Below, piece by piece: positions 6,561 through 34,935 of a DNA stretch of 64,000 bases. Source of the stretch: Mytilus californianus (Eukaryota); the NCBI RefSeq assembly GCF_021869535.1, contig NW_026262745.1, positions 41,540,001 through 41,604,000 of the forward strand. Direction: 5' to 3'. A program made the position numbers and the translations under genes. The notes under the pieces are model-generated. The model worked only from the letters and a program-made list of their open reading frames with translations. It ran no database searches and was not told the origin of the DNA. Numbering within the stretch: the first letter of the stretch is position 1; each line of letters opens with the position of its first letter.

Positions 6561-6736
6561 TCCTAATGATGATCGTAAGGTGGTTTAAAATTGCTCAAAT
6601 TCTATTCATTTAGACACTGTTGGGTAGTTGTCGTCTGAATTTATAATCATACCATATCTCCTTTTTTATGATAAATTACACTGATTTTATATAGTAATAT
6701 ATATGTTTCCATAATTGTTAGTATTACCTTTCACGT

Positions 6737-7189
6737 TTGATCCGTGCCAATTGGCAAACTATTGCCAAGCACCCAAAATTGTTCAAGATCTTTCCCAATC
6801 CTCTTGTCTTAGCCTTTCGGAGACCAGCAAGTCTGAAAGACTTATTTGTGGGAACTGACGTCTCCTCTAATAAAAGCTGTTCAACTGCAGGATGGTGCAA
6901 GTCGTGTGGTAACAGACGATGTCTGACTTGCCAACAAATACTGAATACTCAAACATTTACTTGCCACTCCACTGGGTCTGTGTACACTATATTTTGTAAT
7001 GTAACTTGCAAACCACAGAATGTTGTATACCTTCTTCAGTGTCGATTTGGTATGCAGTATATTGGCGAGACAGAACAGGGGCACGCACAAGCTAATCTCA
7101 AAAACCTTACAATCACAATCATAGACCACAACGAGGGTTGGTCAAGGGCCGAAAGACTTGCTCGGGAAAGGTTTTGGATAAGAAGCTAA
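6737..7189 (+). pseudogene. PLE C-terminal Cys-rich linker plus GIY-YIG endonuclease (5'-truncated, internally deleted)
   Basis: AFRRPASLKDL, CKSCGNRRCLTC, NVVYLLQC..MQYIGET and RERFWI motifs. Confidence 0.88.
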
Positions 7190-7214
7190 GGACAGTTTCC
7201 CCAGAGGGCATACA

Positions 7215-7982
7215 TGAAAAAAAACATAGAATGAGTCACTCATTTTCCCTACCATCACTCATTTTCCTGACATCATTTGTTTCCAGTTACTCCGGCTTCC
7301 TTACTTGACTCTTACAGTTTTAAGGATTCGTTTGGAATTTTTTGAATTTTACTAGTTTAAGTACCAGGGTTCTTTTCATTTGGTAGGGATGTACAAGTAC
7401 GCATCCACGTCCAATTATTTGACCTTAGCCCAAATTTACTATTATTTTTTCTTTTCAATATAAAACTGCTATTTATTTGGGATGATAAATACGCAGCCTC
7501 TGTTTGACATATTTTACCAGCTTATATCGATCAGTGCTGTTTTTTTTTTGGGAAGTTGTTGCAACATCTTAACTGACGTCATTTTGGAATTTAAGAGTTG
7601 TGCCAGTTCATATCACTAATTACTATTTTCATTTAGGCATGTCTTTGAGTCGTTTTTTTGAAATTTTAAAAATTTATTAGCGTCTCTTCATATGATGTTT
7701 GGATGAAACTGTTTCACTTTTTTTATTGTATAGAATTCAAGATTGCTATAGTTTAATAATCAGAATAGATTGATCTGATTCATTTTACATCGTGTTCATA
7801 CTGATGAAGAATATCTGTTATCCGAAATATTTATAGTTACATTTGTTCGTTTATTGTCATTTTTTGGTGATGTTGTACCCTTTTAGACTGGTTATATATT
7901 ATATTTTGTAGTGTACTGTATCATATATATATGTTCCGTCGCCCCGTAAGATTTATCGTTGGCTATTATTCAGTCATTTAAT
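7215..7982 (+). repeat. PLE pseudo-LTR copy 1
   Basis: About 770-bp high-identity direct repeat of 21200-21975, lying between the EN end and the start of the next ORF. Confidence 0.88.
7801..7835 (+). ncRNA. Hammerhead-ribozyme-like core in the pLTR (second copy at 21789-21823)
   Basis: CTGATGA-stem II-GAAA. In copy 2 stem II is GGATA/TATCC; stems I and III are not clearly formed. Confidence 0.4.
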
Positions 7983-8007
7983 ATTTTTACCTTTTTTGTA
8001 GTCTGCA

Positions 8008-9262
8008 TTGAGTGTGTTCACTCGATCCGATATTCTTACTGCATATTCCATCATGCATTTGCAATTTCATTTTAAGAAATTAAGATCTTTTACTATCAAA
8101 ATTATCAAAACAGAACATCATATTTCAAATTTAGAAATCTTCATTGATCAAAGAATTATTCCGAAAGGGTTAGTTTTAAAAGCTTCGCCACTTACAACAG
8201 GAGAAAAGTCAAATAGATTTTTCCATAGATGGAATAAAATTCTATACAACAGTTCTTTTAGTCTGATGGATCTTTTACGGCAAGAAGCAACTCATCAAGT
8301 AAATTATTTATATAAACTTCGTGATAACTTGCACTGCCGATCTCGTGAACTATTGTCTGATCTTGAACTTGACGAAATTCAAGTACGTCTTGGTGATATC
8401 AAACGTATTGAATCACACAAGCTCCACGTCAAACAGATTAACAAATTTAAACGTGATGGTGTGCAAATTAATCACCCTTTAATCAGACCTTCAAAAATTT
8501 CAAATAAAAATAAAAAGCCTCGCAACCGTAGATTTCGAAGAAAAAGTCAAATTCCAGTCAATTCTAACAACACGGTTGTCAATTTATCAACAGTCTCTTT
8601 AACTGAGGACGAAATTAAAGTCTTATCTAAGGGTTTGAATTTTTCCCTACTTCCAGTAACATATATAATATGAAACTGGAAGATAACCTTAATAACTTTG
8701 CCAGAATCCTCAGAATCAAAGAATATTTTGGTAACAAGGATAATGAGGAAGACTCAGACACGTCTGACTCGGAGGAAGACACCAGAGTTCCGCATTTTAA
8801 AAAGAAGAGTTCATGGATTCCAAAACCTAGTAAATCTGCTACACTGGAAGATGTTATCGACAAAATCAAATCGGATGTTGTTCATCTAGCTAACAACAAG
8901 TACTCGTCATTTTATAACACCTCTTCTGACGAGAAAAAAGCCATACAATCGCTGAGAAACCGAGATGATATTGTGATAAAACCAGCAGACAAGGGAAGTA
9001 CCGTTGTGATAATGGACAAAGCTAATTACATCGCGGAAGCAGAGCGTCAGCTCTCTGATGAGAGATTTTATAAGAAGATTGACTTTGACCCTACTTCCGA
9101 GTTTAGTTCCAAATTTATTACTGCGTTACAAACCATGCACGATGACGGTCACATAGATGAGGATATAATCGGATATTTAAAACCAGAGAACGCCAAGCCT
9201 GGTCATTTGTATCTTCTTCCTAAAATACACAAGGTTAACAACCCTGGTAGACCCATTGTATC
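8008..9262 (+). pseudogene. PLE ORF N-terminal region up to the start of the RT domain (frameshift near 8670; cut off by the Polinton)
   Basis: IIPKGL, LSKGLNF, DIVIKPADKGSTVVIMD, LYLLPKIHK and PGRPIVS motifs, ending abruptly at AGTAGT. Confidence 0.9.
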
Positions 9263-9399
9263 AGTAGTATTGTAGTGCACGTTCTGAAACAGGAGGAGCT
9301 TGGAGGAACTTGGAGGAGGTCAATCAAAGTTCAAATATGTGACATTCCAGCAATTTGGAGGAGGTCAATCAAAATTCAAATAAGTGACATTCCAGCAAT
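9263..9399 (+). repeat. Polinton terminal (TIR) region with two 45-bp tandem units
   Basis: AGTAGT at 9263-9268; ttggaggaggtcaatcaaa.ttcaaata.gtgacattccagcaat at 9310-9354 and 9355-9399. Confidence 0.75.
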
Positions 9400-9929
9400 T
9401 GTCAGAATGATGTCATTGTAAACATTGGTATACCTTCTTGAGTATAGAAACTAATATGTTGTTTTGACAGGTAGTAAATGGCTTTGAAAAAGAAAAAGAT
9501 GATTGAAACAGATTAAAATTTATTCACATTTAACATCACTGTTTCAAGTGTCTAAATTATTTTTTAAGGAAACATTATGTTCTCAATAAACTATATATAT
9601 ATATATATATATATATTAAAAGACATAACCTAAGCATCTATCCATTATTGTTGTAAAACAATATATAAAACATATAATCTGATTGTGTTACCCGATATCT
9701 TTTTTGATTGAAGAAATATATGACTTGAGAAAATTATGCAATGTATTATTGTAAAACATCAATATATAAAAACTTATAACCTGATATATCATTCAAAAAT
9801 ATGTTACCTGAGATATTTTTGATTAAAAGAAATACACCAGTTGAGGACAATTATGTGATCAATCCTATTATGAAATTATGACTTCAGGAAAATTATGCAA
9901 TGAATACTACTATGTATTTACACTATATT

Positions 9930-11109
9930 TTGGCACTTATTACATGATGTAAAATAGACTATAAAAAAACAATATATGACAACATCAACCATATACATAC
10001 ATATGATCAATCTTTAACACCATGTAAAAAAATCAGTAAATAAAAAAAAAAAAACATATGACCCGAGAGAAAATATATTGAGCTCACTAAATTAACATAT
10101 ATTAAACTTTGAACTAATGACCCAACCTTCCAAGTTTGTCATGATGGTACCAACAGTCTGAAAAATAATATAAAACATTAATTTTCAATCATTACTCTAT
10201 GTTAATGTCAGGTCAAGTTAACAACAATTTGTATTCATTTAAAAAATCAGAAGATATGGTATGAGTGTTAGTGTTGTTTTTATCATAATTAATTATACAT
10301 ACCAAATGTTTAAATTCTGTAGACATGGTAGAGTTAACTGTTGTTGATGAAAGTGAAGACACAATGGTTGGTTTTTTCAAAGCAGGTAAAGTTGGTTTTT
10401 TCCAAAGCAGACGGCGAAGCTTTCTTTTCAATAGTTGTCATGGTAGTTTGTGTAGCATGTTCTGTGAGAGATTTCACTGTAGTTGTAGGCTGAAAAAAAT
10501 ATCTACAATGGTAAGCATTTACAAACTTACTTTAGATAAAAAAATATTGTCAAATAACTCTCTTAACCAGTGTCTGAATATGTTTAACATTGTAAAACAA
10601 AAATAAAGGGGGGGGGTTTCAAATGAAACATTTTTTTTTCATTTTTTTGTGGCCAAGTTGGTTTATTTACTTTGCTCCACCATACAATATTATCTATTTT
10701 TTATAAATAAGAATAAATACATTGATAATTGTAGGAACAAGATCAGTCAAGGGATAATTAAGAAGAAAAACCATATTCTCAACGAAGATGATGCATAAAG
10801 ACTTACACACTGTTCATCGTGAACACAAACAGCTGTTGCACCTTCTATGTGGTGGCAGCACTACTCAATGTCCCCGTCTTCTATGCGTACTGTTATACCA
10901 TCTACTTTGAGTGTGGATGGCTCAAACAAGCGATCCATTATTAGGGTGGACACTTCCTTCCGTTGCTTCTTCAAGATGTAATCATTGATTCCAGTGTGAC
11001 GACAGCGTATGGCGTCTCCCTCGTTCTCACAATCTTCTCCAATTCTTTCAGACTTGCGTGCAGGTGACGCAATAACTTGCACTATCAAAACGAAGATGAA
11101 GATGTTCAT
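9930..11109 (-). pseudogene. Multi-exon secreted/type-I membrane mucin-like glycoprotein gene within the Polinton
   Basis: Exon 11109-10807 (hydrophobic N-terminus, Cys-rich, internal TAG, GTAAGT donor); exon 10489-10303 (Thr/Ser-rich, TTTCAG acceptor, GTATGT donor, 1-bp insertion); exon from 10157 (TTTCAG acceptor); decayed hydrophobic stretch about 9930-10010. Confidence 0.6.
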
Positions 11110-11619
11110 TTTAACAATTTGTTGTTGTTTGTTTACTGAAAATTTTCTTACATGATATGGCGCGAAAATGAAATGACGTTTGTACGGGAAAGAGATTTGA
11201 CTTAATACTAAAGAGATACTTTTCATATTGCAAAGGAGATTTAAAATGTTTTTCTAGAATTTTTAGTATCAGTTATCTTTCAATGGTATAAATGAATCAT
11301 ATTTTGATAAAATCATCAATTCTTTTTATATTATTTTCATGAGTTTGTTAATTAACAATAATTTTGAGTACGTTGTATTTAAATGTTGGTATTAAGTCAC
11401 TGTTATGTCTTTGAAACAAAACTCTGATTGGTTGAAAATAGATTAATTGTGTAAGGGATATACTAAATAAATAAACGATGTGTAGGAGAGTGAAATTATT
11501 CCGGAATATTATATTTGTGCGTGTTTTAACTAGAAGGAAAAATACAATACATTTCGGTTTAGTATCAATTTAATTATTGATTGCTATTTTTATATCCTTT
11601 TAAAAAGAAGACTAAATCA

Positions 11620-12400
11620 ATCATAAGTGGTCTGTAGCTCCCCGTTTCTTTCTCCAATCTCTTGAATCCATTTTCTTAACTTTGGTATCTCCGTATCTTC
11701 CTCATTGTCAAAAACATGCTTTTTTTTCTTTGCCCCGAGGGATTCCCGGGACATAGAAATAGGACCCAGCCCCTCCAATCTGCTGCGTGGTAAGACCCCA
11801 CCAAAGGGAGGGAACTTTCTGCTGTGAAAAATAATAATTTAAATAAACTAATATATATATACAATTTAACCATTTAAATATATCGTCTTTTTTCGGGTGC
11901 TACTCTTCTCCGCAGAAGCTACGGGATATATAAATATAGTTTCAACAGGGCGTGTCAAATCTTTGATCAATCCCCAAGTGGTCTGTCGCGCCCCGTTTCT
12001 TTCTTCAATCTCTTTAATCCATTTTCTTAATTTTGGAATTTCTACATCTTCCTTATTGCCAGAAACATGCTTTGTGTTTCCTCTTATGGTAAGGGTGATA
12101 TCTACACCATAGGGAGGGAACTTTCTGCTGTGAAAAATAATAATTTAAAATAAACTAATATATATATATATACAATTTTACCATTTAAATACATCGTCTT
12201 TTTTCGTTGGCTACTCTTCTCCGCAGAAGCTACGGGATATATAAATATAGTTTCAACAGGGCGTGTCAAATCTTTGATGAGTCCCCAAGTGGTCTGTCGC
12301 GCCCCGTTTCTTTCTTCAATCTCTTTAATCCATTTTCTTAATTTTGGAATTTCTACATCTTCCTTATTGCCAGAAACATGCTTTGTGTAAGTGTTCCCCT
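11620..12400 (-). pseudogene. Small unknown Polinton gene with a triplicated ~35-aa motif
   Basis: KHV..N.ED.EIPKLRKWI.EI.ERNG..QTT read in three copies; near-identical tandem duplication 11805-12077 / 12111-12388. Confidence 0.5.
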
Positions 12401-12741: not shown

Positions 12742-13537
12742 ATGGCTATGGAAAATGGTTCACGATTTGTGTTTTTGGAGAAATCCAAAAATAGGAAAAA
12801 AGAATATTCCCATAGATTTGGTAATCAAAAGAATGTTGTATTACAACAATCTAGTAGGGGTAATTTTTTTGTCAATATTTATGACAACAGACCGAATTTT
12901 AATGGACGAATTTCATTTGCTTTTGAGGAAGCAGTTCAATTTAGTGAACTCGTTAGTCAATTGGAGATGTTGAAGGAAAATTTCAAAGTAAGTCTATTTT
13001 CATTATCCAAAATATGTGGTATGATTGACTAGTGAGAAAATAATTTTTAAATATAAAGTTAAGAAATTTGGGATTTTTTTTATAATTAATAAAGATATTT
13101 TTATAATATGTAAATGCTGTCTTACAGCTAAAGGGGGAGGGGGTTTAATGTTGATCTTATTAAAATAAATAAATTTGAAAAGATTTTAAATTTGACTTAT
13201 TTGCAGAGCTTTCGGAGAACTTTCGACTATAATGGAAAAAAAATATATAAAACTTATAAAAAAAATATAAAAAAAATGCAAAAAAAAAATGCTAAAAAAA
13301 ATTTAAAAAAATGTATTTAAGGAGGAGGAGGACAAACCAAGTCCCCAATTCTACAAAGAAATTTCTCAAGAACCAAACAACGTTAACACTACAAGACACC
13401 AAAGAAATGGTACAACTTGTACCATTTCTAGTGAATCGCAACGGGAACCCATGCCACCACCACCGCCGTATACACCACCACCGTATACGGCACCACCAAA
13501 AAAAAAAAAAGAAAACAGAAGACGCTTACCACGTTGA
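12742..13537 (+). CDS. PC4-like ssDNA-binding domain exon spliced to a Lys/Pro-rich PPxY-containing tail (probably frameshifted)
   Basis: NVVLQQSSRGNFFVNIYD...GRISFAFEEAVQFSELVSQL resembles the PC4 fold; phase-0 GTAAGT donor at 12988; acceptor TTGCAG at 13201-13206; open frame 13322-13537 EEEDKP...PPPPPYTPPPY...KKKKENRRRLPR*. Confidence 0.5.
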
Positions 13538-14017
13538 CTTAATAGGCTTATTGAACGATATAAGTAAATAATTGTACTCTTTTTGTAAGATGAGTTTGTT
13601 TCAGGCGTTCCATAAAAGTTTTTAAGAAAAATTCATAAAATTTTATTTGCAATAAAATAACATACTAAATTATAAAATAAAACAATAATATAAAGTTTAA
13701 TCATATTTTGAAATGTCCATAGGCATAACTCTTAATATGATTAATCCAAAATCTCTTCTCATCAATGTTAAATAAACCTTTTTTAACAATATGGTTGACA
13801 ATGAGTGCATGATTTTGACTTTTTATTAATTTCATTGAATTCATTGTCGATGCATTTTGAAATAAACATTCTTTATAATTGGCATGTTTTAACTGATTTT
13901 TGACAGCACATTTTTTTATTCCTTTGGCAGTTTTCTTTTCCTGTTCCGTGTTGTCGTCATCATATATCAAACTGTACATTTTTGGTCGCAATCCAATAAA
14001 CTCTTTAATTGGAACGC

Positions 14018-14215
14018 CTGAAACAAAACGAAATTCATCAAGTATTTAGTAAAAAATTAGGTTTGAAATTAGGTTAACAATAAAATAGATTTTTGTAAAA
14101 TAAAAATAATCTCAATGGTATTATTTTTTTTTCTTTGGACTTTGTTATTTTTTATTTAATATTTGTTATTTTTAAGTTTTTGTTAATCGATTAATTATAA
14201 AATTAGTTCATAGTC
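14018..14215 (-). other. pPolB intron 3 (198 bp, phase 1, degenerate GA donor, strong TTTCAG acceptor)
   Basis: Removal restores KFKDELDG-VPIKEFIGLRPKMYS. Confidence 0.7.
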
Positions 14216-14370
14216 CATCTAGTTCATCTTTGAATTTTCCAGGCATTTTTTTTTTTATTTGTTTGGGAATAGGTAGTAAGTTTGAGGATATCCAGAAAAG
14301 TCGAAATGGTCTTTGATGATTTCTATATCCTTGTATACATCATCTGTCATGATTTCGTAACACAAGCTGT

Positions 14371-14546
14371 CTGTAAGAAAATAAGAATTACATCATTGTT
14401 TAGCTTTGACTAGCCGAATAATTCGGTTGCCGACTGAATTTATTTAACTGAAACATGCATGGTCGAAGCGGTAAAATTGATAACTTGTGTAAAATACTAC
14501 TTGTCTTTTATCCCCATAAAATATAAAAAAAAAATAAAATATTTAC
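14371..14546 (-). other. pPolB intron 2 (176 bp, phase 1, GTAAAT...CTTACAG)
   Basis: Splicing restores LLFTDTDSLCY (polymerase motif C). Confidence 0.9.
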
Positions 14547-14828
14547 CAGTATCCGTAAAAAGCAATCGAATATCTTCTTCATACATGGGCTTCATTATTT
14601 TGTAGTGGAATTCATACATCAGTGCTTTCGAAATGTCCAATATTGCCTGACCAGCATAGATTGGTTTGTTTAAAAGAATGTTCACTTTTTTGTTTTCTAT
14701 ACCCACAAGGTGTTGGTTAAATATCTGAAAATGGTCAAAGGACGGTTTCGACGTATATTTTACCAACTTCTTCTGGTCCGACATAAGTTTTACGTTTCTA
14801 TGTCTGCGAATATCTTCCATGGTCTTTC

Positions 14829-14958
14829 CTACAAGTAAAAGATCCATTAATATTTTCATTTTTTAAATTGCTTTTATGAATTCAATGTTCGATTTTTTTT
14901 CGTATCTTATTAGAAAATAAAAAAATTAAAAGACATTACAACGCAAAAAAAAACTTAC
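14829..14958 (-). other. pPolB intron 1 (130 bp, phase 1, GTAAG...TTGTAG)
   Basis: Splicing restores EFYKLRNNSVFG-KTMEDIR. Confidence 0.9.
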
Positions 14959-16564
14959 CAAAAACACTGTTATTCCTTAACTTGTAGAATTCTTTCTCAA
15001 ACACATTATTAGCCTCCCTTCTTTTTTGTCCTCAGACGGAAACGCTTTTTTGAACTGTCGAAAATGCGTAGGTCCTTCTTGTGATAAATTTTTCACTAGA
15101 GTGTCTAGAGAACAATTTAAATATTGGCATGTGTCCAAAAAGCGAGGATTTCCTATAGTGAGTGATACGTATTTTTCCATGTTATTGGGAATACAGGATA
15201 TTGGCTTATCTTTAAAACAATCAGCCCTTTGTAGTAGTAAATGTGTATCAAAATTTTTACCATTGTGGAATAATACAGGAATATATGATGGTTCTTTTAG
15301 ACTTAAATTACACCGCTGACATAATGCAAGACGATAATTAGTATAATCTTTTTTTCTGGGTTCTCTGGTTATTCCATGATGTGCATGGTCTCGTACTATA
15401 ATTACATTTTCATCAAAAAGTGTCTGACAAACCTCACAGTTGGTGATAAGTTGAAACGCTTGTTTTGCTTCATCATTCATTATCAAAGGCTCAGGTTCTC
15501 CAAGTATGTCATTGATATATTCCTCTTCGATAGCCATGTCTTCAAAAAAGTGTTCTATGACTCTATCTCCTCTATAAACCACAGGTGGTTTAGAATAATC
15601 ATCGTTCGTACATAGGACTATGTAGGAGTACCCCGATGGTTCAATTTTCGTTTCGTGTGTAATCGATGATTTCTTCGGGTTTGGTAGACTTGTATCCATC
15701 TTTCTTGAAAAACATTCAAAATCAGCTATGATGGTGAAACTTATTTTTATGGCTTTGTAAAAGTCATTAAATTCTAAAATATTGTCGCCTTCTTTCGGAT
15801 ATTGTACTCTCTGAAAATCTATTTAATCACAATAGGGTTGATGACTTGCAAGCAGGTCTTCTCTCATAAAGCCATGCAAACACCGTCGACAAAAGAAATG
15901 TGCATGATTTTGGTTTGTTTGTCTTAAAATCTATTAAGATTCTTAATCAAACAGTAGTGTGATTGTTTGTCGTTTGATAAATACAACAAGTCAATATTTT
16001 AATGGCTGTTTCTTGATTTAGATAAAGCTAAAGGGAAAATCTGTTCACCTTCATATCCGAAAACGTTAATTGAAAGGTTGTTTAGTTTTTCGAATTTTTC
16101 CACCTGCTTAATTGGAACAGGAAAATCAATTCCTGTCGTGTTCAATTCATTTTCAAACGGTTTATACCTAGTTACACGATGAGCGTTGTTATAAGTCGGA
16201 TGAATTGCAGCCAAAAAAGACCAGAGGAAGAATTTATTATCATCATTTTGAATGTTGATTACACCTTTACACAGTTGTATGGTTGAAGGAAGCTGCATGT
16301 ATGACGAATCATTAATAGGTGCGTATTTTACTGTTCTTACTTCTAAGTGTACAACTTTCCGTATTATCCAATTTGAGCCTCTATTGATGTATTCCTCAAG
16401 ACTTCGATGCATCTTTTGATAAGCCTCGTTTAAATTATGTTCTAAGTGATCATTATTAAACAAGGACGCATAATTTCTACTCCTAAAACTGGGTAAGACT
16501 GTTTCTGTTTGACCATCTTGAATATCACGTTCCATTTCAACTTTGACATTCAAATACCATTTAA

Positions 16565-19500
16565 GGGGGTACCCAACACTATACCCCAAAAAAAACCTGT
16601 CGTTTAATTTTTCTTGTTTTTATATCATTGATTAGTTAGGCCTAGCTGAACATCATGTAAAAATTTTTAAAGATTTGAACCGTTGGTTAAAAAGATATGG
16701 CCACCCAAAGATGGCATGGGTCACATGCTAATTTCGGTCGATTTTTGAAGTTCCAGAAATATGGGTATAGGAGTATAGATGTTATTTTTTTTTTTGAAAA
16801 TTAAGCCTAAATTGACAAAAGCAAGTTAATAGTGATTATTCAAGCAATTTTGAGTTGATTGATACCCTTTACTTGTAAGTTTGTGTTTCTAAATTTAAAT
16901 TTTAGTCTGAACTAAAAAGGGGGGTCTAAGATGAAGGAACCAAAAATGACTATGATTGGTCAAATATTTTAAGATAAAAATGTAAATTAAAAAAAATTGT
17001 GTCGTTTATTTTTTTTGAAAAAGTAACAATTGTAGTACTATATCAGTCTGTTATTCTAGCAAAAATTTATAACAATTTAACCGTCAGATCTAGGCCTTAG
17101 ATATTTGGCATGTGGATGTATAGTCATGAGGTTAAGTGTCTTGTGTCATGATGACCTTCATGTGACCTTCAAATTTGACCTCAATGTCAACTTAATGTAT
17201 ATATATTTAGTGAACAAATACATATAACACAAGCTCTAATCAACCATACAACAATATACACACACATTATGACATATCAACAAATTCCTTGCAAAAATTC
17301 AAAAAGGTATAGTTTCTAGAGAGGCGAAGTGTTCGTACTTAAATACCCTACAGAATGTTTTTTTAATTTTCACATACGGAATCTGCGTGTCAAAGTACAC
17401 GAGGGGTAATAAAATAAAAAAGGGAGTAACCGTTTTTCGTTTTTGAGATACGAGCTGTTGAAATTAACAGCATGAGACGCCAAAAATACATAGGATAAAT
17501 AGGGAAATTCTTAAAAATCGGAAGATATTTCACATGAACAAGATTTTCAACTTTGTTGGTCTACAGATTATAAAGAAAAGATAAACGATTCAAAAATGAA
17601 CGACGAATCCATTGGTGCAAAGAACCACTGCTTCTGAAAATCCGAACTAGGTGATAAAATAGAACTGAACGTGCAAGATCCTTATGTATAATCAAGTTCG
17701 TTAAACATATAATTTGATAGTTTTTCTGGGGAGGTAATGAAAATTAGATACAACTGGTTTTTAGTTTAAAGCAAATCAGTCTTAAAAATGCTATCACAAT
17801 GTGAGAGTCTTAACTCATTTCACCTCTCATTCCACGAAATATCAAACTACAGTAACAAGTGTCACATTATTTTTTTGGCTCCCTTATACTCTATCCAGTC
17901 ATAATCTTGAATTGAGACTTGAGAAGAAAACTTTGTTTATGACGTCTTTACACTGAATCCATTGGATGTTGGATGTGTACTGATTTATTATGTAGTTTTA
18001 GATGCATGATTGTTTTTATTAATTGTTATTGACTTTGAAATAGCTGTCAGTAAGTGTGAGTAATCTCAGACCTGTACTTAGTGTCTTTTTGTTGTTGGGA
18101 TGTACAAGTACCCGGCCACGTCCACTCTATGCTTTTGTAAATGTATTTCCATTTGTATCCATCTGATGAATAAAGCCTTTTTCAACTGATTTATATAGTT
18201 CGTTCATATGTTGTACTGTTACACCACTGTCCCATGTTAAGGAGATGGTTGGGATCCCACTAACATGTTTAACCCCGTGACGTTCTGTATGTATGTATGT
18301 GCCTGTCCCAAGTCAGGAGCCTGTAATTTATTGTCGTTTTTTGCTGTGTTACATATTTGTTTTTCATTTGTACATTAACTATGCAGTTAGTTTTCTCGTT
18401 TGAAGTGTTTTACATTTAAGATTTCGGGGCTTAATTTTTATAGCTGACTATGCGGTATGGGCTTTGCTCCTTATTTAAGGCCGTATGGTGACCTATAGCT
18501 ATTAACTTCTGTGTCATTTGGTCTCTTGTGGAGAGTTGTCTCATTGGCAATCATACCACATCTTCTCTTTTATATTTACTTCAAAATTGCATTCACTAAT
18601 TCGGAAAGATACACAAAAGCACAACAAAAGAAAACAAATTTCGCTATCCCTTCGAAATAATAATTTGATAAAGCAAAACTCACATGTTCTATTTTTATCA
18701 TACATGTGTAGTTTCAGTTTCAACCATGGTTCTAAATTTAGAATTTACATTACCCCAAAATTGCTGATGGAATAGAAGACACCCGTTTATTGTCTACACC
18801 TGCCAGGATAAATGTCGAAAACAGAGAGTTGAATGATATAGTGTAATGTTTCGTGAATTGAATCTGATGGTGTTTTTTTTTTTTCTTGTTGTTGTCTTTG
18901 TTCCTCAACTTATAAATGATGCACTAGTGGTTGATTATCGCCTTGTTACATGTATCTTCCGACTTTTTATATGAATATTAATCATGTCCTAAAATTTTCA
19001 ATTGCATTAAAAAAAAACATGACAGCGTTTTTTCAACACACAAATACATGTCATGTATAAATTATTCGTAACCTACAATTTTACACTATGAAGTGTATTT
19101 CATTCAAAACTGCAGTTTTCAAAAAAAAAAGTATCGTGGAGTCAACTCTGGTTTGATTTTAATCAATTTGGTACGAATAGAAGCATGATTCGCCTTGGTT
19201 TATTTATTTATTTGGTTATAACGTTATTGTTAGGCTTTTTACTTTTTATACTTTATACTTTATTATATTATATGTAAGGCATGGGTCAAAAAACGAAAAC
19301 AGTTCTGGTCTTTTCTTTTCCCCTTCATTTGCCACTTTGTGAAAAAATCTGACCTCCTGGTTTTCTTTTGTAAATTTGTTTCACCTTGAAATTTTCCTTT
19401 TTTGTCTCTTTGAAGATTCATTTATAGAAAATGTGTAACTTTAAATGGATTAAAAGATTAAATGAATAACAATAGGTGTACATCTGCTCTTAGCAACAAA

Positions 19501-19614
19501 GTAAACATTCTGATCAGGATCTTTTAAGTTCTTGTATATTGCATGTGATTTTAAAACGCTGCAATGAAACAGACCATGAGTTAGAGTTATCTTTCTTAGG
19601 TGTTGTGTACCCCC
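16565..19614. mobile_element. Non-autonomous TTAA-specific DNA transposon (Kolobok-like), 3050 bp
   Basis: TTAA at 16561-16564 and 19615-19618; 15-bp TIRs GGGGGTAC(C/A)CAACAC; removal restores RDIK-WYLNV in frame. Confidence 0.88.
17930..18570 (+). mobile_element. 3' tail fragment of a Naiad-type PLE nested in the Kolobok-like element
   Basis: Colinear similarity to 58570-59220, which directly follows a PLE RT remnant. Confidence 0.7.
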
Positions 19615-20502
19615 TTAATGTCTCTCATATATTTTTTCCTAGACTCGACTATTTGTTGTATATCTCCTTTAACGTTCGAAAAAAATTGTAGAAGATCGTA
19701 TTTTTCATTTCCTTCTGGAATTATTTCAAGTTGATTAACGGAATCGTTCAAAGCAGATTTTTTAACACTACGATTTCTTCTTTTCTTTTCAGTAGGTAAA
19801 GGATTTATGTTTTCGATTTGCGGATTCAAGGTGCTGATAGACGGATCAGACGATAATGGAAGAGAACTGTCTGTGATTGAATGCATTTGATCCACGACTT
19901 GCCCTGCCTGACCTCCAGTTTGATTCAATGGATGCTCTACATTGATGTGATCAAAAAGATCCTCATATGTATCAAAAGCTAAGCCACAATGTCTACATGG
20001 AAATTGTCTTTGTTTTTTATGGGATTCTGAAGCGCGAATACATTTTTCGTGTCTTTTCAGGTTCTCTAAACGTGATAGGGTTTTGCTACATTTACTACAT
20101 TCATATCTTTTCCTTGTGTGTGTGTTCATATGACGCGATAGATTAAATTTTTTAGTAAATTCTGCATCACATAAGTCACATTGATATAGCGCTTTCTTTT
20201 CCCATTGTTGAATCGTTTCATTTGATTTCCTTTTCCGATTGTAAAGTGATTCTGATGCGTCAGCTGCCCGAACCAATGCTTCTTCATCACAATCGCTGAA
20301 TTCAGAATTATTTAATGTCTCGTTAAAGTCTTGAAATAATCTTTCGAGCTGTTCGTTTCCTCTAGGATAACGTTGTTTAAAAAATTGGGAAACTATCAGC
20401 CATGGTCGATGTGAATAATAATGTAAACAGATTGCGGCTCTTATATATTTATAAATATCAGGGATTCCACACATTCTATTGTTAACATTTCTCACATACC
20501 AC

Positions 20503-20889
20503 TCATATTTTAAATGTCAACCATTTTGTTCTAGTTTGTGACCTTTTCATAGTTTTTACCCCTGCATTCCTCATTGTGCTTTTAAGTTGTTTGACTTTAA
20601 GAAATGTTGAAGGTTTCATTTTTAGATACGACTGAGATTTTTCGGTTTCAACCCCATTTAAATTTTCGTTGTGTATTTTTGTCTCTTGATGTTCATCCAT
20701 ATTTATTTTTTGTCCTTCTACATCGTCCTTGTTTTGTGGTTTAATGTCGTTTTCTGTAGTAAAAATTTCTTCAGTATGGTCTTCTTGAGGTTTTTTTTCA
20801 TGATGTTCATCATTAAGTTGTTTGTTTTCAAAGTCTTTAATTAGTCTATCATACTTATATTTAGGAATAAGCACCATTTCACGCGACAT
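20503..20889 (-). CDS. Polinton small ORF (M...MVL(I/V)P...KW.. type), function unknown
   Basis: MSREMVLIPKYKYDRL start and KWLTF end, a pattern I recognise from Polinton gene blocks; overlaps the upstream ORF. Confidence 0.6.
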   Translation of the reverse strand: MSREMVLIPKYKYDRLIKDFENKQLNDEHHEKKPQEDHTEEIFTTENDIKPQNKDDVEGQKINMDEHQETKIHNENLNGVETEKSQSYLKMKPSTFLKVKQLKSTMRNAGVKTMKRSQTRTKWLTFKI

Positions 20890-21199: not shown

Positions 21200-21975
21200 T
21201 GAAAAAAACATAGAACGAGTCACTCATTTTCCCTACCATCACTCATTTTCCTGACATCATTTGTTTCCAGTTACTCCGGCTTCCTTACTTGACTCTTACA
21301 ATTTTAAGGATTCTTTTGGAATATTTTGAATTTTACTAATTTAAATACCAGGGTTCTTTTCATTTGGTAGGGATGTACAAGTACGCATCCGTGTCCGTCC
21401 AATTATTTAACCTTAGCCCAAATTTACTATTATTTTTTCTTTTCAATATAAAACTGCTATTTATTGGGGATGATAAATACGCAGCCTCTGTTTGACATAT
21501 TTTACCAGCTTATATCGATCAGTGCTGTTTTTTTGAGAAGTTGTTGTAACATCTTAACTGACGTCATTTTGGAATTTTAGAGTTGTGCCAGTTCATATCT
21601 CTAATTACTATATTTTCATTTTAAGCATGTCTTTGAGTCGTTTTTTGGAAATTTAAAAAATTTATTAGTGTCTCTTCATATGATGTTCGGGTGAAACTGT
21701 TTCACTTTTTTTATTGTATAGAATTCAAGATTGCTATAGTTTAATAATCAGAATAGATTGATCTGATTCATTTTACATCGTGTTCATACTGATGAAGGAT
21801 ATCTGTTATCCGAAATATTTATAGTTACATTAATTTTGTTCGTTTATTGTCATTTTTTGGTGATGTTGTACCCTTTTAGACTGGTTATACATTATATTTT
21901 GTAGTGTACTGTATCATATTTATATGATCCGTCGCCCCGTAAGATTTATCGTTGGTTATTATTCAGTCATTTAAT
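21200..21975 (+). repeat. PLE pseudo-LTR copy 2 (3' end of the PLE insertion)
   Basis: Direct repeat of 7215-7982, followed by the target-site duplication. Confidence 0.88.
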
Positions 21976-22395
21976 GTTTCCATAATTATACATACCGTTT
22001 AATTGTTTATTGTTTAAATTGATGGTATTAAATATTTTCAAGTATGGTTATTTTGTATTTGTCATATGATACTGTTTATTGTGCCACTATTTCGTTTCCT
22101 TTATAGATGCTATATCTAAGAGCTGGGGTAAGAGGAATGACTGCTATTACAGATGTATCAGAGAGCCTCTCTTTTGAAATATTTTAAGAGTTGCAGCTGG
22201 TACGATTGAATGAAAAGGACGAAAACAGACCCTGAATAATAATGGTCTACGAAGAAACAACAACTCATACGATACTTTTGTACGATGTGTCAATACACTA
22301 TCCTCATTTATAACACAGCCAACAGCCAAAGAAATGGCAGCGGCGATGATTGCTCAGTTGAATTGAAAAGTGCTGGTTTTTATTTTCATATAACC

Positions 22396-26479: not shown

Positions 26480-28897
26480 TTAAGTATATATATATCTAGT
26501 CTGACTGTCCTTCTGTCTCGATATAATCTGGTTTTGTCCGTCATCATTCTGTCTCGACCTTGATATATTTTGTCTTGAAGCCTGTCCGTCACTCAGTCTT
26601 GAAGTAATTCTCCTTGTTGTGCTGTCATTCTGTCTAGATGAGTCTTGTCTGAATGTCTGTCTTGAAGTAAAGCTGTCTTGTCTGCTGTCTCTATTGCTTG
26701 ACCTAGACCTGTCTCGTCTGCTGTCCCTATGGCTTGATCTCGACCTGTCTCGTCTGCTGTCCCTAGGGCTTGACCTTGACCTGTCTCGTCTGTTGTCCCT
26801 ATGGCTTGATCTTGACCTGTCTCGTCTGCTGTCGTTATGGATTGACCTCGACCTGCTGGGTCTGCTGTCCCTTTGGCTTGACCTTGACCTGTCTTGTCTG
26901 CTGTCCATACGTATACGGCTTGACCATGACCTGTCTTGTCTACTGTCCTTAGGGCTTGACCTTGGCCTGTCTCGTCTGCTGTCCCTACGGCTTGACCTTG
27001 ACCCTACCTCGTCTGCTGTCCCTTTGTCTTGACCTTTCCGTACTAAAATTCTGACTGCAGCTCATTGAAGAAAAGCGGTTTTGTCTACTGTCAATGGCTC
27101 TTGACGATGATCTGTCTCGTCCATTGTCAGTCAATCTTGACGATTATCTGTCTCGTTATGTCAGTCTGTCTTGACGGTGATCTGTCTCGTCCATTGTCAG
27201 TCTGTCTTAACGGTGATCTGTCCCGTCTATTGTCGGTCTGTCTTGACCTTGACCGATATTGTCTGCTGTCACTCTGTCTTTCATGTCTAGATCCTGCTGT
27301 GTCCCTCGGACTAGAAACCAATCTGTCTCCTTTGTCACTATCTCTAGACCTTGACTGTGATCTTGTATGCAGGTTTTCTGGTATCCTTACAACTGGCACT
27401 TTCTTAGGTGGTTGTGGCATAGGGGTATCATCTTAAATGAGAAGTATTAAGTCATTGCTAAATGTAATATAATATCATACCAGTAGCATATTCACATATT
27501 GATTCAATGAAAATAAAGTTTTTGTTTATACAAATTAATATTGTTAATTACTACAAATTGTTGAAATTTATTTGAATCAGATAATGTTTATTTTATACCT
27601 TTCTGACTGCTTGAACTGTCAACACAGGCATTCTGTGATTGAGTTGTAACTGGACTACTGGAACCACTTTCATTTTCAGATTCTTTGGACATGTCTTAAA
27701 ATAGAAGAATGTATATTCTAAACTTTAAATTAAATATCACGTATTTTAGCATGTTTAATAAACAAGTTCTTTTCAATTATATTTGTTATAAGTTATACAT
27801 TTAGTATAAACTGAATTGTCTCTGCTTAATAGCTGATTCTAGTTCACATATAAGTAATGAAAAAAATCATATTTTAATCTTGCATGAACAGTAATTTTCC
27901 CAGAAATTTATATAGGGTGTTGTCCAATGTTATTTATTTTAGTCTCATCCTTTAACATTTGAAATTCACAATTACTCTATCCAAATTACAAGACGACAGT
28001 CAATCCTTTAAAATAATTTTTGGGTAACACTGATCTAACTGTTAGTAAAAAAAGTTTTTTTTTACCTGCCACAAAATCTTTAATTTGTAGCACCTTTTGG
28101 TCTGTTTTTTTTTACAGGTTCAATTTTTTCATTCTCATCTTCATTGCAGGTTTTTGCTGCTGATGTAAAATCATACGACTCACATTCATCTTTACTTGCT
28201 GAAAAATAATTATAAAGTATTAACATGTGTAGAGATAATAACTTAACAATATCACAGTACATTCCCTCTAGATTAGTTATGTACATGCAAGTTGTTTAGA
28301 CACCAATATTTACAGTAATATTTATACTTTCTATCCGGCAATGTACAATGCTTACTGAAGTTGTATATTTCTTTCAGGTTAAAAGATCTACATTTGTAAA
28401 TATAAGACAAAAATATGTATTTTATTTCTGAGATCTGCAAATATAAGAATTGAATGCTATTTTTTATGTATATGAAATAAATGTAAAAGTAAAGATCACA
28501 TGTTTAGCAAGGAGCACAGAACTAGAAATCCAATATAATATATATTTCCTGGTAGTTAATAAAAAATAAATATAGCAATATATTCAACAAATCATATCAA
28601 GAGATATACTAGCTGTTCGATTGAGTTTATTTCTGGCAAACGAACATGTAAAGAAAATTTTCAATATGAAGATACATCGATGTTTGTAATACATACAAGA
28701 TTTACACTTAACTTTGATCATCTCAAAACTTCTCCAGCCATTTGTTGGTTTTGCCAACAACTTCATGTACTTTTCTGCCTGCACTCCTGGGAGCCATCTC
28801 AATACACTGTCTTGAACCCAGCTGTGTGGTACTACATCTTCCACCTCTTTTGCCCTTCTTTCCACACTGCCATACACCACATCCTTTGAATATTCAT
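26480..28897 (-). pseudogene. CMC-EnSpm second gene (DUF4806-associated type N-terminus) with an RS-rich repeat region, four exons
   Basis: Exons 28897-28697, 28198-28066, 27694-27599 and 27431-26480, all phase-1 GT-AG joins; N-terminus MNIQRMWCMAVWKEGQ/KEVEDVVPHSWV...W...P..GWRSF; frameshifts in A-runs. Confidence 0.7.
26680..27270 (-). repeat. Coding 36-bp (12-aa, RRDRSRSSHRDS) tandem repeat plus degenerate 33-bp units
   Basis: Plus-strand unit ttgaccttgacctgtctcgtctgctgtccctatggc. Confidence 0.88.
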
Positions 28898-32800: not shown

Positions 32801-34935
32801 AAACATTGTTAAACAGTCAGATTTATGGATTTCAGTTGAAATATCAATAAAATGTCTTGTCCGTAGACAAAATATATAAATTGTATTGCTAAGTTTGATT
32901 GTTTATTGTAAGAAGATGCATCAAGTTATTATAATGTTCTATACACCAAAAGAAAGGGTTTTTTTAAGTTATGTTATTTATAGGTTAGTTTAGATATAGT
33001 TTGATCAGATCAGAGTAAAGATCAAAGAAAGCTACTGTTGTTTGAAATAATTGTGAGTTAAACATGTTCTTGTCATTTTTTTTTTCGATTAAAATGTTTT
33101 TTATTCAATAATTCTAAACATATTTTGTTGTCTTTGTCATTGGCCAAAAAATCTGAGACTAGTTACCATGTCTTGAAGGCAACCATTAAAGAAAATTAGA
33201 CAGTTTTTAAACACCTGGTATTAAATAAAAATATTGAATATTTCTTCCAAAAACTGTATGTAATTATATAAATGCTTCAAGTGTTAGCGTTATGACGGCC
33301 ATTTTTCATAATTTAAACCATTTCTGTACCAAAATATCAAAAGAGTATTTTTCCTGATGTGATCTTCATTTTTGACTTCATGTGAAACACAAAATGTACA
33401 TCTGAGTCAAGGCTCCGTGTTGAAGACCGTACTTTGACATATATAATGGTTTACTTTTATAAATTGTGACTTGGATGGAGAGTTGTCTTATTTGCACTCA
33501 TACTACATTTTCTTATATCTATCTGATTGTGGCAAGGCCGAACAGGGTTTTTTGCCTCTTGATGGATTGCAGATGGTTTTCATAGGGAAAAGCAGAAATA
33601 TTTCATTCATTGAACAGTCGAAATGTTTGACATCATCTGTGAGATGGAGTAAGTTATGTACATTGTACACAATTAATTGTTCACCAAAATGTTTTTTTTG
33701 ATTTAATCACAAAAAAGGACAACAAACTTGACGCATGGTCTAAGTAAGAAGCTCTTTCATGAGAATCTTATTCGAGCAAAATCGAAATTACAATAGCCAA
33801 AGTCAGAAAATGAATAGATCGCTCCTTGGGCAATATTCTTTGCAACACAATAGGTCCGGTGTACAATAGAAATTGCCTGTACTCTGTTGCTTTCCATCTT
33901 TCCAGCTCTGCTAAGGAACGTGGTTGTCGCGCAAATTCTGAAGGCAATTTACCACAGTAAGATACTAACTTATTGGAAAGTTCGCCAAGTTGTATATGTA
34001 AAAGTTTGCACACAGTTGGACCTTGCTTCAAAAACCACAGGATCCTTTTCACAATCCCAAGGCACACACAATGCATATAATCTAAGACAAATGATGATAT
34101 GCATGGATTGCCGTACCGAACAAGTGGTGTTTCACTCATCTGATGGTTGACATAAGTTCTCGCTGTGAATATTTTATCAGTTCTTTTTTCGTGTAATTCA
34201 GAAGAGTATATTATTACACGATTGTTCTCCCAATATCCCTTAATCACACACCTATCACATGAAAAATACCCAGTGTGACCTTTAACTTGTTTCAAAAATG
34301 CCCTGGCTGGCGCATCACATATAAATGCTCTCATTTCTACATGAAATGTTTTGTCTTCAAAACTTACTCCTTGTCTAATTATTTCCTCAAGTTCAGACAA
34401 AAAATCGTCAAGAAACTCATGTAATGAACTTGGTTTACAAGCTTATTATAATGGGGGAAATTTTTCAAAACTACATAATATCGGCCAGAATTGCTTTCCT
34501 GATGATTTGAACAAAGGTACACTATCAATACTATATTTAAATAGATGTTTTGCAGATTATTTAAAGTACATGGAGACAAGCCATCCAGGATCTTAACTAG
34601 TCCATTTTTTATTCCATAATAAATAGACTGTCCTCCACATTTTTCTTCAGAATTTACAGTTTTAGGGGTCTGTAATAATGTTCGAGCATCTTTTGAAAAT
34701 TGAAGACCCTCACGTTTTAAGACTATGAGCAGTTCATCTAAACAAGATCTTGTCAACTTATTTTTTGTTGACCAATCAACTATTTTTTCCTTCAATGACA
34801 AACATGGCTCTTCGTTATCAGATGAAACATGGCCAATGTCTTGCTCTGAAACTGACGTGTCAACCTCTTCCACGAATCCAAAGTCTGATTCGCCACTTGA
34901 ATCATTTAAAGTTGAATTCCCATCAGTGCCATGCT
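29870..34935 (-). pseudogene. CMC-EnSpm (CACTA-like) transposase, split by a 3.3-kb insertion
   Basis: KDARTLLQTP, FICDAPARAFLK..KGHTGYFSCDRC, LDYMHCVCLG, LPSEFARQPRSL...WKATEYRQFLLY, YNVHNLLHL, NCFLL, FFTEPC.S and IPMLH motifs. Confidence 0.9.
30252..33540. mobile_element. Non-autonomous TIR DNA transposon, 4-bp TSD (AACA), superfamily uncertain
   Basis: TIRs CGGCCT(A/T)GCCACA(T/A)TCAGAT; AACA at 30248-30251 and 33541-33544; removal restores KNPVAQVTNRLAE. Confidence 0.88.

Follow-up and report, generated by a model that had tools for sequence, protein, structure and literature searches.

A broken spliced gene of a Mytilus family with a predicted surface-protein layout, likely inside the end of a decayed Maverick/Polinton-type element

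The 64,000-nucleotide stretch of Mytilus californianus DNA analysed here (the window) carries on its minus strand, from 11109 to about 10095, what is almost certainly a real spliced gene; a decayed Maverick/Polinton-type element likely encloses it close to one of the element's ends. The reading favoured here, held with moderate confidence, is that the gene is a broken spliced copy belonging to a Maverick-borne accessory family with a role at the cell surface. Feature coordinates are collected in Table 1.

Table 1. Features of the window discussed in the text (positions are those of the window).
Feature	Position	Strand	Details
Insertion-target retroelement	6722..9262	+	Interrupted at 9263; no supporting Pfam match
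(AGT)2 end motif AGTAGT	9263..9268	+	Interrupts a reverse-transcriptase-like ORF
T-rich stretch with hydrophobic translations	9936..10081	-	Possible decayed transmembrane exon; similarity at the level of shuffled and control sequence
Exon 3	10095..10157	-	21 codons, then stop; 3' limit not a mapped donor
Intron 2	10158..10302	-	GT-AG; 145 nt; 22% GC
Exon 2	10303..10489	-	187 nt; 37% GC; Ser/Thr/Pro-rich stalk; frameshifted near its middle
Intron 1	10490..10806	-	GT-AG; phase 0; 317 nt; 27% GC
Exon 1	10807..11109	-	ATG at 11109; 303 nt; 45% GC; hydrophobic N-terminus and cysteine domain; phase-0 donor GTAAGT
Tandem triplication of short ORF	11625..12390	-	Units 351 and 311 nt apart; GT-AG spacers of 49-54 nt that resemble introns; no Pfam match
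Fragmented polymerase B gene, likely protein-primed	13701..16619	-	PHROGs DNA polymerase E 0.0027, endonuclease VII E 0.0033
Polymerase phase-1 intron, first	14958-14829	-	130 nt; canonical GT-AG
Polymerase phase-1 intron, second	14546-14371	-	176 nt; canonical GT-AG
Polymerase phase-1 intron, third	14215-14018	-	198 nt; probable; donor non-canonical
C2H2 zinc-finger ORF	19596..20516	-	PF00096 E 1.5e-14; upstream of polymerase, same strand

Structure and decay of the window copy

Exons 1 and 2 are richer in GC than the introns, and exons 2 and 3 are each preceded by a T-rich CAG acceptor. The ATG of exon 1 is one of three among the 2,569 ATGs of the window that pass a filter for a signal-like start and an open frame; the hydrophobic 10-mer at the N-terminus of exon 1 reaches a KD value of 3.2 and is conserved in relatives, and TTTTTTCAG occurs three times in the window on both strands, one of these occurrences being at this gene. 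The two halves of exon 2, each in a different frame, contain 48% and 47% Ser, Thr and Pro, a level matched in 75 of 127,822 and 66 of 127,804 six-frame windows (about 1 in 2,000).

A full HMMER scan of 1.84 billion protein representatives returned three matches, namely VDI34585.1 from M. galloprovincialis (P0002, 61% identity), CAG2213133.1 from M. edulis (P0003, 53% identity) and an unnamed ENA ORF (40% identity). These identities to P0002 and P0003 are those of exon 1, with an E-value of 1e-22 to the relatives; the P0003 alignment spans exactly 11109-10807, and homology ends at the 10807 donor. Against P0002, exon 2 scores 49, compared with 36 for the best of 30 shuffles, and exon 3 aligns over 10157-10095 to residues 158-178 with 57% identity over 21 aa (E 0.002; score 68, best shuffle 23). 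Additionally, an unnamed relative (P0004) shows an apparent read-through at the position of intron 1, and a Logan ORF from a related subfamily (P0009) shows acceptor and donor read-through matching the borders of exon 2. Because homology to the Mytilus models stops and starts at the same borders, the exon joins are fixed; the phase-0 GT-AG joins that an earlier note had proposed from the letters of the DNA (11109-10807, 10489-10303 and 10157) are thus confirmed by matching joins in relatives. Of the six cysteines of exon 1, five are matched by cysteines in each of the two relatives compared, in agreement with the Cys-rich region that the note had placed behind the hydrophobic N-terminus.

The window copy is broken at positions where the Mytilus relatives are open: exon 1 has an in-frame stop at codon 83, and the length of exon 2 is not divisible by three, which shifts the frame. 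The previous description of exon 2 as a frameshifted, Thr/Ser/Pro-rich stalk exon of this length stands, except that the surplus base, for which a G had been named, is not decidable. The hydrophobic stretch previously reported at 9930-10010 and read as a membrane segment is present (about 9930-10080) but not distinctive, since T makes up 51% of the strand at this place and such a stretch occurs in 168 of the 556 blocks of the window. When the three transmembrane last exons of the relatives were compared with 10094-9263, no match above chance was found, shuffles agreed, and scores as high occurred in 138, 84 and 72 of 152 control blocks; the best match of the shortest exon, at 10007-9936, was the one equalled by 72 of the 152. 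A decayed membrane anchor may lie at 10007-9936, within the stretch to which the note had pointed, and the transmembrane exon of the window copy appears to have been lost or to have decayed beyond recognition. Because of the stop, the frameshift and the lack of a recognizable transmembrane exon, the window copy is a pseudogene whose function has been lost.

The chance level of this 3' hydrophobic stretch is what would be expected if the whole arrangement were a coincidence of splice-like motifs in AT-rich DNA; that account is hardly credible, however, since relatives matching at an E-value of 1e-22 carry the same joins, and it is refuted for exons 1 to 3.

The probable Maverick/Polinton-type element around the gene

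The gene is placed 0.8-1.8 kb inside the AGTAGT end at 9263, in keeping with the earlier claim that it adjoins a Polinton terminus. A contig of run X10 continues the interrupted target sequence differently past 9262, and a contig of run X13 carries the same element end with another flank; therefore, 9263 is a mobile boundary. The accessible text of PMC8097293 gives (AGT)2 as the commonest Maverick end. Searches for the end motif gave 0 matches in metagenome contigs and seven in viral contigs, none of which had further likeness. The interrupted target is presumably Penelope-like, judging by its motifs. Its segment 7218-7986 recurs at 21202-21979 (+) with 94.9% identity over 781 nt, where the other end of the element is missing; no inverted copy of 9263-10100 was found in the window, that other end having apparently been lost near 21200. 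A deletion likely removed the remainder of both the target element and the Maverick. Among the 21 proteins searched against Pfam and the 13 searched against PHROGs, no match to an integrase, packaging ATPase, protease or capsid was found in the truncated element.

The polymerase B region matched the PHROGs DNA polymerase weakly and had no Pfam match below an E-value of 0.04, and no relatives of the polymerase were found in viral contigs or plasmids. Its introns lie at what are taken to be conserved polymerase motifs. Because the polymerase is spliced, introns are native to the element, and splicing is therefore no sign of host capture, the origin that the earlier note had considered for the gene.

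Several other segments of the window were noted. The triplicated unit of about 311 nt is possibly a second spliced accessory gene. At 26480-27436 a 36-nt tandem repeat holds Arg/Ser/Asp-rich open frames on both strands, and the one frame scanned had no Pfam match. Two ORFs at 33768-34933 (-) had no Pfam match and resemble a decayed transposase of a DNA transposon.

Intron-bearing cargo near a Maverick end has been described in nematodes, where, in the accessible portion of 10.1101/2022.07.12.499685, a cargo region of 2-5 kb beside the left repeat holds intron-containing genes and the core genes are intronless. The wasp/krma cargo reported there and the mussel gene are alike in being intron-bearing accessory genes within a few kb of an element end. 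In contrast, the nematode cargo consists of proteases and kinases, whereas the mussel cargo is a predicted surface glycoprotein; the mussel polymerase is also split by introns, unlike the nematode core genes. Vertebrate Mavericks, as presented in the available part of PMC8097293, share with the mussel element the common 5'-(AGT)2 end motif, the accessory genes and the mostly decayed state of the copies, but are without introns when intact, whereas the mussel polymerase has at least two canonical introns and a likely third. Introner insertions are reported for dinoflagellate Maverick-like proviruses in the part of PMC11957031 consulted, and the accessible parts of 10.1101/2023.08.22.554363, 10.1101/2023.10.06.561300 and PMC8502044 describe neither spliceosomal introns nor such a protein.

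Relatives in Mytilus and copies in sequencing runs

A profile search in which 8,000 candidates were scored had seven proteins among the matches listed, and the named relatives, cluster members included, come to seven models, all from Mytilus; none of those found was from outside the genus. These relatives are unannotated or uncharacterized predicted gene models rather than observed proteins. When exon 1 was compared with a word-indexed protein set, none of 51 candidates and, in a second search, neither of 2 was a match; as relatives are present in that set, this blank is weak. No relatives were found in viral or metagenome contigs, and Pfam, PHROGs and PDB sequence searches gave no useful match for the family.

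In the relatives the N-terminus is hydrophobic and is followed by a domain of about 90 residues with five cysteines, then by a Ser/Thr stalk and a transmembrane last exon. In P0002 the stalk that follows the cysteine domain is 52% Ser, Thr and Pro, and the best hydrophobic 19-mer after the stalk reaches KD values of 2.35-2.43 in P0002, P0003, P0007 and P0011. After exon 3, the models P0002, P0003, P0007, P0010 and P0011 end in one of three unrelated types of transmembrane-plus-tail last exon; a single locus has two of these types, as its RefSeq isoforms X1 and X2. The unfused models are 148-279 aa long, with at most about 180 residues before the membrane segment. The succession of signal peptide, Cys domain, mucin stalk and membrane segment claimed in the earlier note is thus predicted for the intact Mytilus relatives, and falls short for the window copy in the transmembrane exon. 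One tail among the relatives ends in the motif RRS..R....RL.L, which we take to resemble the ends of retrotransposon integrases.

The M. edulis and M. galloprovincialis models are about 99% alike across the two species. In M. edulis the related subfamily is found repeatedly with little change: CAG2256149.1 and CAG2245140.1, on two contigs, are identical at 177 of 177 positions with differing downstream sequences, and may be haplotypes, while XP_071127316.1 and XP_071140141.1 are identical at 117 of 118 positions; their two records measure 90.6 and 84.3 Mb. As read from these sequences, the near-identity of relatives on several M. edulis scaffolds fits a mobile, element-borne gene, and the relatives would themselves be located within Mavericks.

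Four of the 24 runs listed (X1, X10, X13 and X17) were compared. X1 is a DNA run and may be close to the source of the window; it contains near-identical pieces as well as diverged contigs over both the end-proximal DNA and the gene, including one of 1,532 nt with 62 differing letters over 10699-11174; among the contigs listed, none joins the element end to the gene. The stop codon of exon 1 carries a difference in two of the diverged contigs. One X1 contig (depth 3.5) skips 9959-10767, which indicates a deletion copy without exons 2 and 3, and in one X10 contig (depth 3) a part of exon 2 is missing and the remaining length is divisible by three, a point in favour of coding-type conservation that would arise by chance in 1 of 3 cases. 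An 8-nt deletion in exon 1 is found in contigs of both X1 and X10. Exon 1 differences among close copies are mostly non-synonymous (six of the seven classified, and seven of eight among those listed), and the differences listed for close copies give no signal of coding-type conservation. The homologs that the earlier note had asked for therefore exist as diverged copies in X1 and as Mytilus models, without a signal of the coding-type conservation it had asked for among copies. The RNA-seq junctions it had named at 10807/10489 and 10303/10157 were seen in neither X17 nor X13: X17, of which 6% was read, gave two reads and none on the gene, and a single unspliced 155-nt contig came from X13, so that this junction test was weakly powered. 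That the run search listed no RNA run containing the gene carries no weight in either direction.

Some of these observations would also be expected if the family were a mussel-specific host surface gene from which a Maverick once captured the three 5' exons, the intact relatives being host genes and the captured piece having decayed without ever serving the element. The mostly non-synonymous differences among close copies, the missing transmembrane exon of the window copy and the two RefSeq isoforms at one locus, as in an ordinary host gene, all suit such a capture, and nematode Mavericks acquire host genes at the same position (10.1101/2022.07.12.499685, available portion). However, the window gene is only 53-61% identical to models that are about 99% alike across two species, the relatives are near-identical on several scaffolds in the manner of mobile DNA, all named relatives found are from Mytilus, and the introns are native to the element. 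Capture of a host gene is accordingly judged unlikely, while retaining appreciable weight.

Spread by an LTR retrotransposon or Helitron that merely landed in the Maverick is very improbable. Nested insertions do crowd the window, and the P0005 model continues into a segment resembling a retrotransposon gag (PF03732, E 2e-4, short of the cut-off), but this fusion is found in just one of the seven named models, the diverged X1 copies also align between the gene and the element end, and the retained introns would better fit copying at the DNA level. The fused tail of P0006 was also considered as a link to the element and rejected, as its best match, inside the element (score 51, ending at 13525, 252 blocks), compares with 54 elsewhere for a gag-tail control. 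A short proline-rich ORF at 13296-13571 (+) weakly resembles this tail, and the control is as good.

Predicted structure and possible role of the family

The best model of the P0003 domain had a pLDDT of 75.0 and the other four ranged from 63.6 to 38.1 (two of five above 50); the domain is predicted to be small and beta-rich. The full-length model, which contains a long helix, had a pLDDT of 39.7 and is unusable. The P0003 domain model had no match in PDB or BFVD with E <= 0.001, and the best fold match, to STAS-type chains, had a Z of 5.0 and an rmsd of 3.1 over 73 aligned residues. Both models show a slight tendency towards parallel-beta folds (STAS, LRR, beta-helix), which is a lead only and demonstrates no new fold. 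The fold and family searches suggested by the earlier note thus yielded a beta-rich domain model, no useful Pfam match and no PDB or BFVD fold match at that threshold. P0003 bears an immunoglobulin-domain name in UniRef, with no Pfam Ig match and no Ig chain among the fold matches listed.

Sequence features predict that the family is a small single-pass cell-surface glycoprotein; its function is read from this layout, with glycosylation predicted. Among mucin-stalk type I glycoproteins, CX3CL1, TIM-1 and the attachment G proteins of viruses are also built with a compact, disulfide-bonded head that a stalk of Ser and Thr joins to a single membrane anchor; the likeness is one of layout only, no sequence or fold relationship having been found. 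The attachment or immune-evasion role offered in the earlier note is a guess for which no family, fold or expression support was found. Its view that a membrane glycoprotein is unexpected for a Polinton has to be given up, as nematode Mavericks encode a single-pass fusogen, MFUS-1 (10.1101/2022.07.12.499685, accessible portion).

MFUS-1 has a signal peptide and one transmembrane segment, as predicted for the mussel family, and with this precedent the single-pass layout could suggest a virion protein that serves a membrane-wrapped Maverick particle in attachment or entry, in the role proposed for MFUS-1 in nematodes. The top feature match in the Atlas, a viral fusion glycoprotein cluster with a score of 0.83, points the same way, but a third of shuffled proteins reach at least 0.8, and in the Atlas structure comparison all rows fell below its bar. 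As far as the available part of the same source describes it, MFUS-1 has 866 aa, the fold of a class III fusogen and an ectodomain of about 775 residues, whereas the mussel models, with their cysteine domain and mucin-like stalk, have an ectodomain of about 180; neither the sequence searches nor the fold matches gave a fusogen, and three alternative tails would better fit a regulated cell-surface protein. A fusogen is unlikely because the ectodomain is too small, and the entry-protein reading as a whole is improbable. At a guess, the protein would instead work for the element, as a receptor-like decoy or in adhesion.

For a Maverick-borne accessory family with a surface role, the following course can be proposed. 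The host would transcribe and splice the genes of an integrated element, and the predicted signal peptide would direct the protein to the cell surface, where an O-glycosylated stalk would raise the disulfide-bonded domain above the membrane for ligand binding. The choice of last exon would alter the cytoplasmic tail, and the protein would protect or spread cells carrying an active element. A bolder proposal, which is doubtful, is a mussel Maverick lineage that is spliced throughout, polymerase included, and whose own receptor-like glycoprotein family, with an unmatched fold and three switchable anchors and tails, would act as a modulator of the host cell surface, in a virus-like stage under haemocyte immune pressure.

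The searches made brought up no description of the protein family, of its alternative anchors or of the spliced polymerase, which appear to be new here, while the cargo position and splicing have precedent. A literature search, covering few subscription journals, returned no title or start of an abstract describing the family or a mussel Maverick surface protein. According to the accessible part of 10.1101/2025.04.19.649669, bivalves hold the most Polinton-type DNA among the eukaryotes surveyed, in a survey that ignored introns. Intron-blind surveys of this kind would overlook spliced core and accessory genes or count them among the genes of the host. If the family is element-borne, several 'uncharacterized' Mytilus surface-protein models would be viral cargo, and their expression and location would be a direct way to learn whether the Mavericks of mussels behave like viruses at the cell surface.
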